DNA from: a virus
Lineage: Duplodnaviria; Heunggongvirae; Uroviricota; Caudoviricetes
Virus record (IMG/VR): IMGVR_UViG_2579778802_000007
Span: 1 to 31,026 of that record
Strand: one strand, 5' to 3'
Length of the DNA stretch: 31,026 nt
Of this stretch, positions 12,338 to 16,679 are shown piece after piece. The notes beneath the pieces were generated by a model that saw only the letters and a list, made by a program, of their open reading frames with translations, was not told where the DNA came from and made no database searches. The position numbers were made by a program, and so were the translations under genes. Within the stretch, counting starts at the first letter, position 1. Every line of letters starts with the position of its first letter.

Positions 12338-13018
12338 TTACCCCTGCCGCCCGATAACCACGACCTTTCCGCCCCCGCCTTCATCACGGGTACTGATGTC
12401 CTGGGAGATTCGCCGGGAGCCAACCAGCATTTCCCCGTAAGGCACCGGCATCGGGTTCCCCTGGGCAATCATGTTATCCAGCGAGGAAAAGTACGTGTTC
12501 TGTCTGCCGTTATCCGTTACGCGGTAATCCGGTGTTTTTGCCTTCGGGGCCAGCATCTGTGCCATACCGCCCAGTATCATGCTGGCCCCCAGTGAAAACA
12601 GCATCGTGGTGGCAGAAAAACCACCGGCTGCCAGGGCTGAACCCCATAACGCCATCGAGGCACCGGCCGTGAAGAAAGAGCCCACGATGGCTGCCGCCCC
12701 CAGCACAATCTGCAGTCCGCCCTTTCCGGCTCCGGCCAGTCGCGGCACAATGTGGATGACCGTTCCCTCACCCAGCTGTTCGTGAAGACGGGCGTACACC
12801 GCCTCCGGTGCCGTGTCATCACCGGCAATACGTATCTGGTACCAGCCTTCGTTCATCTGACGGCGAAAGCCCGGCATCTGCATCGACAGGGCGCGAATGG
12901 CTTCCGCTGCCGTGTTCACATACAGGCTGAGGCGGCGGCCAAATCGTTGTAAATCCCCGTGAAGGCAGATGCGTGCCAGTGGCGGTGACGCCAGACAGAA
13001 TGCGTTCGTCGTTGCCAT
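12338..13018 (-). CDS. I: Tail assembly protein I
   Basis: Similarity to lambda gpI ('ARICLHGDLQRFGRR...QIVLGAAAIVGSFFTAG...KTPDYRVTDNGRQNTYFSSLDNM'). Confidence 0.93.
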   Translation of the reverse strand: MATTNAFCLASPPLARICLHGDLQRFGRRLSLYVNTAAEAIRALSMQMPGFRRQMNEGWYQIRIAGDDTAPEAVYARLHEQLGEGTVIHIVPRLAGAGKGGLQIVLGAAAIVGSFFTAGASMALWGSALAAGGFSATTMLFSLGASMILGGMAQMLAPKAKTPDYRVTDNGRQNTYFSSLDNMIAQGNPMPVPYGEMLVGSRRISQDISTRDEGGGGKVVVIGRQG

Positions 13019-13653
13019 TTTTCGGAATACCTCTCCCGTTTACTCAGTTGTTCAGGCAGATGGTGAAGCAGCTCACCGTTGCCACAGTAAATGGCGGCAT
13101 GGTTCGGTACCGAAGCACCAAAGCAGCACAGCAGAATATCGCCCGCCTGTGCAGAGGACAGGGGCACCCGGTAAAAGCCCGTTCCCTCCATATTGTCCAG
13201 GTACAGGTTCTGGCCATTGCGCCACCAGTCATCCTCGCGATGAAAATCCGGCATTTCAGTCCCCGCCAGATGGTAAGCATCCCGGAACAGGGTGTAACAG
13301 TCCGTCACCCCGTGTTCAAAGCGCCGTCCCGTCAGGTGTGGCACACAGCGGAATTTGTGAATGTCACCCCGGCAGACCAGCCACCAGGGCAGTGCGCTTT
13401 TTATCTGCAGCCGCCGGTCAGCCTCGCTCAGCCAGGGCAGCCCACCGGGATGACTGTGGACCAGTGCCACAATCTCCCCCGACATCTCTGCCCGCAGCCA
13501 GTCTTCCGGTGCGATACGAAAATACGCCTCCGGCTCTGCGGAAATATTCACACAAGGGATATACCGCTCCCCCTCCGGCGTTCTCACCACGAAGCCGCAC
13601 GACTCCGCAGGCGCACACCGCCGGGCATGTGCCAATATATTGCTATAGAGCAT
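12916..13653 (-). CDS. K: Tail assembly protein K (NlpC/P60-like, JAB/MPN-like)
   Basis: Similarity to lambda gpK ('VHSHPGG.PWLSEADRRLQ...HLTGRRFEHGVTDC.TLFRDAYHLAG'). Start set to ATG 13653, which has AGGAG upstream. Confidence 0.93.
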   Translation of the reverse strand: MLYSNILAHARRCAPAESCGFVVRTPEGERYIPCVNISAEPEAYFRIAPEDWLRAEMSGEIVALVHSHPGGLPWLSEADRRLQIKSALPWWLVCRGDIHKFRCVPHLTGRRFEHGVTDCYTLFRDAYHLAGTEMPDFHREDDWWRNGQNLYLDNMEGTGFYRVPLSSAQAGDILLCCFGASVPNHAAIYCGNGELLHHLPEQLSKRERYSEKWQRRTHSVWRHRHWHASAFTGIYNDLAAASACM

Positions 13654-13707
13654 GAGAACTCCTGATAAAAAACCCAGCCGAGGCTGGGTCATTTCGTTGG
13701 TAATCTG

Positions 13708-14610
13708 TTAGTAGTGATGCAGTGAAGGCGGCAACTCTTTGCTCTTAAGCCTTACCCATGCGGAAAGATTCGTTGGTCCATCTGGCTCATTAATATCAAC
13801 ATCTCGTGTGTGATTGATTAAAACGTCTCTCGCCATTCCAATAACATACGAGAACTCATGGCCGTAGTTGTAGCACCTGTCAGAATAGTTCGATTGAATT
13901 TGCTTTAGCGCCGGATACAGTTCGCGGAATAATGCCTGTGAGCGGTTGGCATAATCCCATAGCCATACAAGGCTGTTTGCTTCTTTTGCGGAAAGCTCGT
14001 TGGTTTTCTTCTCTTGTTTGCCAATGAACTCACCTTCAAGCACTACCCTGTGGATGTACTCTACGGCTTGCGGTATCTGAGATGCATCAAGCTCTTCAAT
14101 ACTTTCCACATTGAAACGCTGATGAATCATTGCATAAGCTTCTGGGTACATTAGATGCTTTTTGCTGACCAGCATATTTACAGCATCACGAAGCGGAGTC
14201 CTGTCATCAACAGATGTTTTCTTACGTGCATTTTCTGCCTTTCCCTTTGTCCAGTAGTCATGCAGCACAGTAAAGCATTCTTCCTGGTACTGAATCAGTT
14301 TATCGCGGATGTCAGCACGAACTTTCTCGGGGTTGATGCTGAACAGCCATCCATTTAACTTCTTCAAAGGAAGGCAGAGTAGCTTACGAAGCTTTCCATC
14401 AGCAGCAACCATATTCATATGAATACAGTTGAACTTATCTAGTTGTTTCATAAGTTTTTGTTGCTGAGTACCCCAGCTCATTCCGAGGTTTTCAACGATT
14501 GGCTTCATCGCAACATATGCAACTCCGGCAGCCATGGCGGTGATAATTTGCTGACCGTTGAATGGTACGTAAGAGGTGTTCACTGCTTCTAAAATTGCTA
14601 TACTATTCAT
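13708..14610 (-). CDS. Antirepressor-like protein (P22 Ant N-terminal-type domain)
   Basis: N-terminus '[22 protein letters not shown]...[21 protein letters not shown]' resembles antirepressor N-terminal domains. Sits downstream of the arc-like gene, as ant does in P22 immI. Start at ATG 14610 (GGAG upstream). Confidence 0.55.
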
Positions 14611-14672
14611 GTTGGTTTTTCTCCACGGATTTACTGACAACCGAAGCCCTGACTGTTCCCGCAGTTGGGGCT

Positions 14673-14876
14673 TCAACTTTCTGCTCTATCAGTTATATCT
14701 TTCCCTTCATATACTTCACCTATATTGCTAATGCTGGCAGAACATCCAAGATGCTTGTATCTTATGATGTCCAACACGCAGTCACTACACAGCATCCGAC
14801 CTGTTTCTTTAGAGTAAATGTATGTTTGATCAGCGTCTGATTCGCTAATGCCGCAGAAACAACATTCTTTACTCAT
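14673..14876 (-). CDS. Small Cys-rich protein (67 aa; CxxC...CxxC, zinc-ribbon-like), hypothetical
   Basis: ATG overlaps the arc-like stop (ATGA); purine-rich SD upstream; 'CCFCG...CSDCV' motif. Confidence 0.4.
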
Positions 14877-15025
14877 ACCATTACCCCCTCTCTCTTCAAG
14901 CTGTCTATCAGGCGCTTGATAACCTCTGAGTTAAACGACCTGCACTCTTCCTTTGCCCTGCTACCTATAGCATCCTTTAACGACTGCGGCATCCTTACCA
15001 AAATCTTACTTATTTCTTTCTCCAT
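14873..15025 (-). CDS. arc: Arc-like ribbon-helix-helix repressor
   Basis: 'MPQSLKDAIGSRAKEECRSFNSEVIKRLIDSLKREG' resembles P22 Arc ('...VRKVAEENGRSVNSEIYQRVMESFKKEG'). Start at ATG 15025 (GGAGGG 4 nt upstream); an alternative in-frame ATG lies at 15037. Confidence 0.7.
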   Translation of the reverse strand: MEKEISKILVRMPQSLKDAIGSRAKEECRSFNSEVIKRLIDSLKREGVMV

Positions 15026-15139
15026 GTTACCCTCCATACAAACAACTCTTTTCGAATACAAAAGATAGCAAAGCGAGTATATCTAGTCAAAATTTTTTTG
15101 CATACACTTTGCTATCAAATTGAATACCAAAGGTGTGAT
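15026..15139. promoter_or_regulatory. Divergent arc/mnt control region with 10-bp perfect inverted repeat GATAGCAAAG (15064-15073) / CTTTGCTATC (15107-15116)
   Basis: Inverted repeat seen in sequence; divergent RHH genes flank it as in the P22 Pant/Pmnt region. Confidence 0.45.
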
Positions 15140-15388
15140 ATGGCAAAGGGTGTGTCAATTTCTCCAACTACGGTAAGAATCCCTGAATCTTTACGCGAGG
15201 CTCTTGCTGTCAGAGCATCAAAAAATGGTCGCTCTGTTAACTCCGAGATCGTCATGATTTTGCAAGCCGCGATTGATGAAGATAGGTCGCCAAAGTCAGT
15301 TGAGTCATTTGCTCAGCAAGAAGCAGACAAATTCAAAGAGGCGCTGCTTGAGACGCTAAAGACCATGTATGGTAAGGATGAAAAATAA
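15140..15388 (+). CDS. mnt: Mnt-like ribbon-helix-helix repressor (83 aa)
   Basis: 'ESLREALAVRASKNGRSVNSEIVMILQAAIDE' resembles P22 Mnt ('...KLKFRAEANGRSMNSELLQIVQDAL'). Same length as P22 Mnt; SD AAGGTG upstream. Confidence 0.7.
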   Translation: MAKGVSISPTTVRIPESLREALAVRASKNGRSVNSEIVMILQAAIDEDRSPKSVESFAQQEADKFKEALLETLKTMYGKDEK

Positions 15389-15924
15389 TGCTGCACACAA
15401 TTCATTTCTTATGCCCCGTTAACACTGCCACTGTTGGGCAACTTCAGAACCACTGTCTCACCGCATTATCTCAAGGCGCAACTGAATTAAATATCCATAT
15501 ATCAAGTCAGGGAGGGGAAACTGCCGCTGGCTTTACTGCGTATAACTTTCTTAAGTCACTCCCTGTTACCGTTAGAACTCACAACATAAGCAATGTTGAA
15601 TCCATAGCTAATATCGTTTTCCTGGCTGGCTCAGAACGTTTCGCAAACCCATTATCAAGATTCCTGTTACATCCTCTATTATGGTGCTTTGCCTCCCCAG
15701 CCGCCGACCATGCCAGATTGAGAGAGTACGGGAAATGCCTCGATAACGATCTTGATCGCTTCGTTGAGACGTTCAATATCGACATCGGAACCCATATTAG
15801 GTGGGCATCCCTGATAGCAGACTCGACCATTTTGGATGCTAACAAGGCTCTTGAGCATGGCATAATTAATTCCATAAAAACTGCAAGGCTGGCATCCAAT
15901 CAGGCAAACTGGTGGGTTGTTTGA
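15388..15924 (+). CDS. ClpP/crotonase-fold serine peptidase-like protein (S14/S49-like), translationally coupled to mnt (TAATG overlap)
   Basis: 'ELNIHISSQGGETAAGFTAYNFLKSLPVTVRTHNISNVESIANIVFLAGSERFANPLSRFLLHP' parallels the ClpP core ('IYLYINSPGG...GQAASMGAFLL...RVMIHQP'), with candidate Ser and His at corresponding positions. Confidence 0.7.
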   Translation: MLHTIHFLCPVNTATVGQLQNHCLTALSQGATELNIHISSQGGETAAGFTAYNFLKSLPVTVRTHNISNVESIANIVFLAGSERFANPLSRFLLHPLLWCFASPAADHARLREYGKCLDNDLDRFVETFNIDIGTHIRWASLIADSTILDANKALEHGIINSIKTARLASNQANWWVV

Positions 15925-15944
15925 TGGGTAAATCATGATTACTC

Positions 15945-15971
15945 CTTATAAAAAACCCACCTGACGGTGGG
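15945..15971 (-). terminator. Rho-independent terminator on the late (minus) strand immediately after L (CCCACC-GTCA-GGTGGG + TTTTTTAT)
   Basis: 6-bp GC stem with 4-nt loop followed by a T-run in the minus orientation, about 10 nt past the L stop. Confidence 0.55.
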
Positions 15972-15980
15972 CATAATCCA

Positions 15981-16679
15981 TTACTGCGAAAGTTTATTAA
16001 TGGAAAGGAAACCGCCAAAATTGCCGACATTCCTGCGCAGTTCACACCCGCGCATGCACTTGCTGCATCTGTCCTTACGGATATCCGTGGTGGGTTTATC
16101 GAACTCATCCGCCACAGCCCCGCCCGTGTAACCACACTCATCAGAGCGGTAGGTCCACATACAGGTGTTCGCCAGCATGATACGACCGGGAAACAGCGCC
16201 CCGTCCGTCTCGGTCGGTGTGGCCAGCACAAACGAGGCCGTCATGGCTGTCAGCTCCGACATCTGCTCCACCACCCAGCGGTCACTCAGCTCCTGCTCCG
16301 GGTCCGCCTCCGGATTGCCCGCAACGAAATTCACCGCATCCAGAAAACGGGCATACACCCGGCGGCGGACCACCGTGGCCCCCACCAGGCTCTGCAAATC
16401 CTCCGCCATTCCGGTGACAAGACCAAACAGATTGGACACCGTCAGCGACGGTCTGGCACTGCTGCCCTTCCCGCTCATCTCAAAACCGCTGCCGTCAATC
16501 GGGTATGCCTCATACTTACGCCCCTGCCAGGTGACCGGCTCCCCTTTTTCATTCAGCTCATTACAGAAAAAATACCGCTCACCGCCCTGTACCGTCAGGT
16601 CGATTTCCCAGAGTACCACCCGCGGTGACTGCTCTGATTTAACCGACTCGTTCAGACTTTCTTCGTGAATATCCTGCAT
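15981..16679 (-). CDS. L: Minor tail protein L
   Basis: Near-collinear identity with lambda gpL ('MQDIHEESLNE...WEIDLT..GGERYFFCNE.NEKGEPVTWQGR.Y'). Confidence 0.95.
   Translation of the reverse strand: MQDIHEESLNESVKSEQSPRVVLWEIDLTVQGGERYFFCNELNEKGEPVTWQGRKYEAYPIDGSGFEMSGKGSSARPSLTVSNLFGLVTGMAEDLQSLVGATVVRRRVYARFLDAVNFVAGNPEADPEQELSDRWVVEQMSELTAMTASFVLATPTETDGALFPGRIMLANTCMWTYRSDECGYTGGAVADEFDKPTTDIRKDRCSKCMRGCELRRNVGNFGGFLSINKLSQ

Follow-up and report, generated by a model that had tools for sequence, protein, structure and literature searches.

The question raised by the locus described here is what an additional small gene is doing inside an antirepressor operon whose counterpart, the immI region of phage P22, is a textbook regulatory circuit. 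The locus lies in a 31,026-nucleotide (nt) stretch of viral DNA (Caudoviricetes; IMG/VR record IMGVR_UViG_2579778802_000007, positions 1 to 31,026), referred to below as the window. An earlier note, made from the letters alone, had described a cysteine-rich open reading frame (ORF) of 67 amino acids (aa), here called ORF67, as a zinc-ribbon-like insert between arc and ant. The ORF is present with the sequence that had been claimed (MSKECCFCG...CSDCV, started by ATG). Judged from sequence comparison, it is cargo in a fixed cassette slot within the antirepressor operon, which is ordered Pant, arc, slot, sar target/hairpin and ant. This plug-in slot adds swappable content to the circuit, with a start codon, ribosome-binding site and stop codon owned by its junctions. 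As a whole, the locus is best explained by an accessory slot gene whose product mimics the N-domain of ClpX and re-routes ClpXP, an explanation held tentatively and given somewhat less than an even chance. The gene and its ribosome-binding signal are as follows.

14673..14876, minus strand: ORF67, an acidic 67-aa protein with an N-terminal C4 zinc-finger domain and a variable tail predicted to be disordered (ORF listing)
14884..14890, minus strand: Shine-Dalgarno-like GAGGGGG, 7 nt before the ORF67 ATG and within the last arc codons (sequence)

A cassette slot between arc and the sar hairpin

In P22 and epsilon34, arc runs straight into the sar/ant leader, ending with TAA immediately 5' of AAGTTGAAGCCCC. 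The window has AAGTTGAAGCCCC as well, with the ORF67 TGA inside it (alignment), and its homology to the two phages restarts at AAAGTTGAAGCCCC, so that ORF67 is indeed an insert relative to P22. The ATG of ORF67 overlaps the arc stop, as had been noted (GGT-ATGA-GT), and the ATGA overlap together with the GAGGGGG sequence upstream points to the proposed translational coupling to arc. At the other end, the ORF67 TGA directly precedes the sar terminator hairpin, and the ant start lies 62 nt downstream.

The cassette structure was seen by aligning the arc-ant intervals of the window, phiv205-1, EC.P3 and one Salmonella prophage, whose ends are conserved and whose middle is wholly different. The left junction comprises the last ~35 nt of arc, encoding DSLKREG(V/I)xV, with the embedded GAGGGGG Shine-Dalgarno sequence and an RTGA stop/start overlap; the right junction consists of the TGA followed by the sar terminator hairpin. 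For a census of the slot, IMG/VR was scanned for the hairpin (at least 119 loci), and the frame ending at the shared TGA was read in each. Among the matches listed, the contents were distributed as follows.

Slot empty, P22-type: 55 of 119 loci
Slot empty, arc itself ending at the shared TGA: 15 of 119
ORF67 intact: 15 of 119
ORF67 frameshifted: 5 of 119
c57 (57 aa, GTG start): 9 of 119
c89 (89 aa, predicted transmembrane helix): 7 of 119
c73 (73 aa): 6 of 119
c80 (80 aa): 2 of 119
Z74: 2 of 119
Z60: 2 of 119, one of them truncated
Z63: 1 of 119

Among these matches, the slot was empty in 70 of the 119 modules (59%) and occupied in ~40%; of the 49 occupied slots, 25, or roughly half, hold variants resembling a zinc-binding domain (ZBD). 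Nine cargo types were found in all, counting Z68 from Salmonella, which was found separately. Their start and stop are common to every type, and the left junction, of which the GAGGGGG sequence is a part, is conserved ahead of all nine. Five of them (ORF67, Z68, Z63, Z74 and Z60) are CxxC...CxxC proteins. The four cargo genes without a zinc finger (c57, c89, c73 and c80; loci L001, L003, L072, L085 and others) share the slot and its junctions, and c73 and c80 gave weak FlbD-like Pfam matches (E 0.025 and 1.7e-4, respectively).

The ORF67 frame stays open in 0.44% of shuffles of its own DNA. In the eight other inserts, too, no stop codon interrupts the frame between the common start and stop, which shuffles reproduce in 0.08-1% of trials each, and the joint chance of nine open inserts (product of the values) is ~1e-23; the other five frames carry stops in most cargo types. 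Because of the shuffle results and the Shine-Dalgarno sequence, the slot is taken to hold translated genes, and ORF67 to be a genuine protein-coding gene on these sequence grounds. The longer TTG-started ORFs in the program-made list are probably not true starts. A TTG-extended 322-aa version of ant (13708-14676, minus strand), which overlaps the ORF67 stop, looks spurious; the ant ATG at 14610 corresponds to that in P22 and epsilon34. An antisense ORF of 92 aa that spans ORF67 and sar (14562-14840, plus strand) was dismissed as spurious, too; in most other cargo types, c89, c73 and c57 among them, no antisense frame is free of stops.

Identical copies of the ORF67 protein stand beside arc variants of 100, 82, 75 and 61-66% identity, all of which retain the same C-terminal tail, and beside several types of mnt and of Ant N-domain, in P22-like and lambda-like genomes alike and whether or not a ClpP-like gene is there. 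The cassette has evidently been exchanged recently via its junctions. Because unrelated cargo genes fill the same slot elsewhere, an accessory (moron-type) gene is favoured over an integral immI regulator.

That the 'ant moron' varies was already known (Villafane et al., 2008; PMC2629481), as were the ClpX ZBD family and the membership of Z60, which is named as such in RefSeq. A nested slot between arc and sar, with junction-supplied translation signals and swappable cargo, is absent from that epsilon34 paper and was not found in literature searches. The slot resembles the lambdoid morons and 'boundary sequences' described there (PMC2629481) in holding low-GC (guanine plus cytosine) accessory DNA that varies among syntenic phages and is bounded by short conserved junctions for recombinational module swapping. 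Whereas a classic moron has its own promoter and terminator, slot cargo has neither and is read as a middle cistron of the host operon, with the conserved junctions supplying the start codon, the Shine-Dalgarno sequence and the stop codon.

Relationship of ORF67 to the ClpX zinc-binding domain

The earlier label 'zinc-ribbon-like' holds insofar as the two CxxC pairs are kept in homologues that are 25-37% identical. It is too broad as a generic label, the evidence pointing more specifically to a divergent stand-alone ClpX-type ZBD. The curated gathering threshold of the corresponding Pfam family, zf-C4_ClpX (PF06689), is 27 bits, and because ORF67 does not exceed it, the assignment is based on profile-level and transitive evidence. 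Only Z60 (MNKEDGFKCSFCGKPQHECAMLIRAKAEIFICSSCVSLCVEAM...) passes among the slot cargo (43 bits, E 4e-11), and its RefSeq name is 'ClpX C4-type zinc finger protein' (WP_032246860.1, 60 aa, Enterobacteriaceae prophages). The same family was matched below the threshold by Z68 (13.2 and 10.2 bits), Z63 (12 bits) and Z74 (18.9 bits), a further CxxC...CxxC slot protein; Z68 and Z63 have no other Pfam match, and for Z74 it outranks one other sub-threshold match.

ORF67 is tied to these proteins by several comparisons. It matches phrog_7150, a family with unassigned function, over its full length (E 3.4e-50, residues 1-67 of a 67-position profile), and the N-terminal 42 positions of the profile are matched by Z68 (E 1.8e-9) and Z63 (E 5.7e-8); Z63 is also linked to ORF67 by BLASTP (E 4e-11). 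An exhaustive phmmer search yielded one true distant homologue, Z68 itself (P0014, 68 aa, Salmonella), which is 33-37% identical to ORF67 and lies in that very arc-ant slot, likewise with a 4-nt overlap. The UniRef rule-based name of its close relative P0019 is 'ClpX-type ZB domain-containing protein'. The other phmmer matches were spurious multi-stretch alignments to tetratricopeptide and immunoglobulin repeat proteins, and word-index homology searches with ORF67 and P0014 returned near-identical proteins only. In hhalign comparisons, the ORF67/Z68/Z63 subfamily aligned with the Z60 cluster at a probability of 81.7% (P 1.1e-5, 42 columns) and, in register, with the gammaproteobacterial ClpX ZBD at 32-35% (P 4-5e-4). 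A second profile, phrog_5259, was matched in register by ORF67 (E 6.7e-5), Z60 (1e-7) and the E. coli ClpX ZBD (4.7e-7), and also by Z63 and Z68.

Conservation across immI-like regions, which the earlier note had proposed to look for, was found: the diverged homologues in the same slot keep the cysteines and the frame. The zinc pattern of ORF67 is C5-x2-C8 ... C30-x2-C33, followed by a helix, and its cysteines align with C15, C18, C37 and C40 of ClpX. All four, together with F7, are invariant in an alignment that includes Z60, Z74 and ClpX; within the ORF67/Z68/Z63 subfamily, C6 and G9 never vary, and I37 is replaced in one case only, by M. The C-terminal tails of ORF67, Z68 and Z63 diverge wholly while the zinc core is kept. 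Residues F7 and I37 align with F16 and I46 of ClpX, which form the hydrophobic patch on which lambda O, SspB, RssB and trigger factor are reported to dock (PMC7804408).

The N-terminal ZBD of ClpX (PF06689, PS51902; PDB 1OVX/2DS5-8) and ORF67 have in common the arrangement CxFCG...(19-21 residues)...CxxCV followed by a helix with D-I-I, a single C4 site, the patch residues F and I, an acidic character and a length of ~40 residues. ORF67 differs in being free-standing, with a 27-residue variable tail, predicted to be disordered, in place of the AAA+ ATPase, in having an extra cysteine at position 6 and a segment from the second CxxC to D-I-I that is 3 residues shorter, and in being phage-encoded within an antirepressor operon. 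Z60 shares with ORF67 the arc-ant slot, the junctions and the stand-alone ZBD, but is a clear Pfam member with only ~21-26% identity to ORF67 and a different tail. On this evidence, ORF67 can be placed, with moderate support, in the ClpX-type C4 ZBD fold family as a diverged stand-alone member that lacks the AAA+ module.

For structure prediction, AlphaFold2 was run twice, with the single sequence and with a 4-sequence alignment from which ClpX sequences were kept out to avoid circularity. The predicted secondary structure consists of a beta-hairpin, a strand and a helix (residues 31-39), with a tail predicted to be disordered from about residue 40. The topology would be compatible with the treble-clef fold of a ClpX-type ZBD; the confidence of the models is considered below.

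Other identities were rejected. ORF67 is no ClpX unfoldase, since it ends after 67 residues, without the AAA+ module and the ClpP-docking IGF loops. Similarity to the RING finger of RNF4 was weak (phmmer E 0.005-0.45; Foldseek E 0.05) and covers the first and third ligand pairs only, the second zinc site being missing. T25 and R27 stand at RING Cys/His positions, and H42 and C45 are not conserved in homologues; PDB sequence searches with ORF67 gave only weak matches to the RING domains of RNF4 and RNF31. The Lar family of restriction alleviation proteins, CPFCG zinc ribbons (TIGR03655), was likewise set aside, as no NCBIfam family matched ORF67 at E<=10. Searches with the PADLOC-DB defence models at E<=0.1 gave no match for ORF67, the ClpP-like protein, Z60, c73, c57, c89 or c80, in a library that covers defence and not anti-defence proteins.

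As a separate observation, the PHROG families 5259, 12435, 6797 and 20296 (short phage proteins, profiles of 65-121 positions) match the E. coli ClpX ZBD with E values of 5e-7 to 8e-23, their function being unassigned or labelled 'protease'. Judged by such profiles, free-standing ClpX-type zinc fingers appear to be widespread in phages beyond the arc-ant slot.

Proposed function and competing explanations

The earlier note had suggested an additional regulator or an anti-defence factor, and either role may apply. By operon logic, Pant would drive the transcription of ORF67, and its translation would be coupled to that of arc. Because the activity of Pant ends once Arc and Mnt have accumulated (established P22 biology; PMC2629481), the protein would be made, along with the antirepressor, only briefly after infection or derepression, until Arc and Mnt shut the promoter. 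The free ZBD may then bind ligands of the hydrophobic patch on the ClpX ZBD, be they adaptors (SspB or RssB, for instance) or N-domain-dependent substrates, replication proteins of the lambda O type among them. Another option is that ORF67 pairs with the ZBDs of ClpX. By either route, ClpXP proteolysis would be transiently blocked or re-routed, to the benefit of the incoming or induced phage. Work in the Houry laboratory reportedly found that the isolated ZBD competes in trans. In ClpX itself, degradation of lambda O depends on the ZBD, and SspB and RssB dock on it (PMC7804408). It is quite possible, if short of probable, that the free ZBD mimics the ClpX N-domain, titrating its ligands or pairing with ClpX ZBDs.

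A more specific proposal, which we regard as speculative and less likely than not, is that temperate enterobacterial phages carry rapidly diversifying free copies of the ClpX domain on which substrates and adaptors dock, as swappable antirepressor-operon cargo, and that these act as decoys, blinding ClpXP to N-domain-dependent clients in the first minutes after infection or derepression. If so, phage replication or regulatory proteins would be stabilised, or ClpXP-dependent triggering of toxin-antitoxin or abortive-infection defences would be blocked. The decoys would represent a new class of phage counter-measure, mimicry of the recognition module of a host protease, and the arc-ant slot a dedicated early-effector site. 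Among known phage proteins, T4 PinA and T7 Gp4.5 act against Lon. SPO1 Gp53 is reported to act on ClpCP (PMC6873191). All three share with ORF67, in the role proposed here, a small size, early expression and the redirection or inhibition of an AAA+ protease of the host. None is known to copy the substrate-recognition domain of the protease itself, and the proposed tie between ORF67 and ClpX is drawn from sequence.

Should the slot ZBDs be mimics of the ClpX N-domain, they would provide a simple genetic tool and a natural case of a virus copying a protease recognition module, and it would become possible to test directly what role ClpXP has in choosing between lysis and lysogeny or in triggering defence. 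Should they not be, the slot would still be a compact catalogue of candidate early effectors, comprising a membrane protein and three further small proteins besides the five zinc fingers. Slot ZBD proteins occur in hundreds of E. coli and Salmonella genomes, where they are mostly unannotated or called 'hypothetical'.

Several results weigh against ORF67 as a ClpX mimic. Searches of Pfam (E<=1) and NCBIfam (E<=10) with ORF67 gave no match. Both AlphaFold2 models were weak (pLDDT, the predicted local distance difference score, 55-56). Foldseek returned non-significant, generic treble-clef matches (E>=0.05), with the RNF4 RING at the top (E 0.05); the ClpX ZBD (2ds5_A) was at rank 9, with an E value of 0.46 and a best target-normalised template-modelling score of 0.65. 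The unrelated slot cargo (a membrane protein, FlbD-like proteins and a 57-aa ORF) makes the position in the slot, taken alone, uninformative on ClpX. The slot ZBDs are only 25-37% identical to one another in spite of shared hosts with a conserved ClpX, which fits variable targets better than one conserved ClpX-related target. In 304 of 374 matching E. coli records (95-99% identity band), mostly O157:H7/O145 prophages, ORF67 is frameshifted and hence dispensable there. The 5 variable sites within ORF67 are too few for a selection test (dN/dS, the ratio of non-synonymous to synonymous rates), and literature searches found no study of or experiment on free-standing phage ZBDs. Nothing relevant was found in literature searches on phage ClpX inhibitors, prophage ClpP-like proteases or arc-ant cargo.

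Nearly equal in likelihood to the ClpX-mimic mechanism, and likewise below the probable, is an explanation in which ORF67, though a real accessory gene of the moron type, uses its zinc finger only as a small protein-binding scaffold, with a target unrelated to ClpX and its specificity in the fast-evolving tail. The target might be a host defence protein, a resident prophage repressor or exclusion protein, or Ant/C2, and ClpX-ZBD ancestry would be historical, not mechanistic. The unrelated small genes c57, c89 (membrane), c73 and c80 in the same slot agree with this view, as do the conserved zinc core with its fully diverged tails in ORF67, Z68 and Z63, the strong differences between slot variants in spite of common hosts, and the low GC content (40% in the insert and ~43% in the module, as compared with 56-65% in the flanking tail genes); early transient expression from Pant would suit an anti-defence or takeover role. 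The lack of a PADLOC match speaks against it, as a weak test with a library of defence proteins. The recurrence in the slot of a bona fide ClpX ZBD (Z60), together with the preserved F and I of the patch, hints instead that a ClpX-like surface matters. An integral immI regulator that tunes the synthesis or activity of the antirepressor, through ribosome traffic into the sar-target hairpin or by binding ant mRNA, sar, Arc, Mnt or Ant, is improbable. ORF67 does sit inside the operon, coupled to arc, and ends where the arc of P22 ends, in the flank of the sar hairpin, and its identical copies lie next to several arc variants with a common C-terminal tail. However, no specific protein can be needed where the slot is empty, as in 70 of the 119 modules among the matches listed, or filled with unrelated cargo, as in others; ORF67 is acidic (12 D/E versus 7 K/R), which does not suit RNA or DNA binding; and its identical copies beside differing Ant N-domains, mnt and arc types reveal no co-variation with a partner.

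Even less credence is given to the idea that ORF67 is the substrate-selecting partner of the neighbouring ClpP-like protease in a minimal phage proteolytic module. The 178-aa ClpP-like gene lies 0.5 kb away, coupled to mnt, and the Salmonella homologue Z68 also adjoins such a gene. In the unbiased sample of the co-occurrence census, however, ORF67 was found 10 times without a ClpP-like gene and 4 times with one (among the matches listed), and the latter also accompanies non-ZBD cargo and empty slots. The two genes belong to oppositely regulated operons (Pmnt and Pant), and a ZBD has neither an ATPase nor any known ClpP-docking loop. Least credible of all is the absence of a gene, with the DNA acting as a conserved non-coding 'boundary sequence' or RNA element that is open by chance. 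It would accommodate the lack of a gene call by the Prokaryotic Genome Annotation Pipeline (PGAP) in 30 sampled E. coli RefSeq records, the label 'bsq2 boundary sequence' in CUS-3, the 97-100% identity of the DNA across contexts with strongly different flanks and the frameshift in most O157:H7 copies. Against this stand the nine unrelated or diverged inserts, whose frames all run uninterrupted exactly between the common start and stop (joint chance ~1e-23), homologues that retain cysteines and frame at 25-37% identity, and the strong Shine-Dalgarno sequence; Rfam finds sar only, ending at the ORF67 stop codon, and the copies with the frameshift belong to prophages in decay, with damage to arc as well. 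The earlier note had named missing conservation and a missing translation signal as grounds for giving up the gene; both conservation and a signal are there.

The surrounding module and the spread of ORF67

ORF67 is embedded in an immI module with the following features, the last of which is the neighbouring ClpP-like gene.

14873..15025, minus strand: arc, a 50-aa Arc-family ribbon-helix-helix repressor (Pfam Arc, E 5e-12); start at 15025, stop TGA overlapping the ORF67 start
15062..15090, minus strand: Pant-like sigma-70 promoter TTGACT-17-TATCTT, directed towards arc, ORF67 and ant (consensus scan match only)
14643..14674, no strand assigned: hairpin GAAGCCC-N18-GGGCTTC, the right slot junction and terminator end of sar RNA, with the ORF67 stop in its 5' flank (minus strand)
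14611..14678, plus strand: complete antisense RNA sar (Rfam RF00262, 95.6 bits, E 5e-21), with an annotated homologue in epsilon34
13708..14610, minus strand: ant, a 300-aa antirepressor (Pfam P22_AR_N, E 7e-45; P22_AR_C, E 2e-28), the last gene of the Pant operon
15140..15388, plus strand: mnt-like Arc-family repressor, divergent from arc (Pfam Arc, E 1e-10; phrog_2685, E 5e-32)
15388..15924, plus strand: ClpP-like serine protease gene, 178 aa (Pfam CLP_protease, E 2e-11), its ATG overlapping the mnt stop (TAATG)

The organisation is that of a P22-type immI, with divergent mnt and arc-ant units and a sar antisense RNA over the ant leader. The PHROG family matched by the mnt-like gene (phrog_2685) also holds the annotated Mnt of epsilon34, and an arc identical to the window copy is annotated by PGAP in a related locus (L004). 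The position of the putative promoter matches that of Pant/Pmnt in P22 and epsilon34. The hairpin is identical in P22 and epsilon34 and is found behind every cargo type; the sequence of sar complements both the stretch between ORF67 and ant and the ribosome-binding site of ant, and it overlaps the final 6 nt of ORF67. The 5' end of ant is 89.5-100% identical to P22 and epsilon34 (100% to epsilon34). Compared with the immI of P22 (mnt, Pant/Pmnt, arc, sar, ant), the window thus has the same genes, order and orientation, an intact sar, the hairpin and the ant leader. It differs in having an extra gene between arc and the sar terminator, a different C-terminal arc tail, which bears the Shine-Dalgarno sequence for the insert, and a ClpP-like gene after mnt.

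The two modules also differ in location, since that of P22 adjoins the tailspike, whereas that of the window (13700-15970, ~43% GC, with 40% in the ORF67 insert) lies between the lambda-type tail genes K (12916-13692) and L (15981-16679), which have 56-65% GC. The whole immI module is a moron inserted between these tail genes. In O157:H7 and O145 prophages, an immI module is found at the same K/L insertion site.

ORF67 DNA was detected in 373 of 5,426 complete E. coli genomes and in the P22-like phage CUS-3, and the protein on at least 1,000 contigs; a related-locus search of a species-representative genome collection found none. In GenBank it is named 'hypothetical protein' only (e.g. AQX97568.1), and the 30 sampled E. 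coli RefSeq records contain no PGAP gene call over the ORF67 stretch. In CUS-3 (L002, CP000711.1), the region 3080-3486 labelled 'bsq2 boundary sequence' contains an unannotated Arc-like ORF and a protein-identical ORF67; the epsilon34 paper states that CUS-3 is without arc (PMC2629481).

Among 45 copies of ORF67, 6 haplotypes were distinguished, with 5 variable sites (2 synonymous and 3 non-synonymous), all outside the cysteine motifs. In O157:H7 JEONG-1266 and O145 RM12275 (L005/L006, 4001-4205), an extra T in the TGTTGTTTC run shifts the ORF67 frame after codon 6-7, and the JEONG-1266 arc carries a 3-nt deletion and is truncated. Because arc is also damaged in some of the frameshifted records, the frameshifted ORF67 copies are regarded as decaying prophage copies.

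The ClpP-like protein has its closest solved structure in PDB 9uxt ('Clp protease', 183 aa, 14 chains; E 1.6e-35). The Ser and His of its catalytic triad align with ClpP, and the Asp is without a clear match. Given the TAATG overlap with mnt, the gene would be expressed from Pmnt in the lysogen. Among the matches listed, prophages of both kinds, P22-like and lambda-like, carry it, whatever the cargo type and also where the slot is empty. It is a neighbour of ORF67 but no obligate partner, a partnership being unlikely.

An in-frame Arc-ORF67 fusion of 112 aa (P0001, ...SLKRGGDGMSKECC...) was present on a single Logan contig and probably arose when the G run in the Shine-Dalgarno region became longer or shorter.

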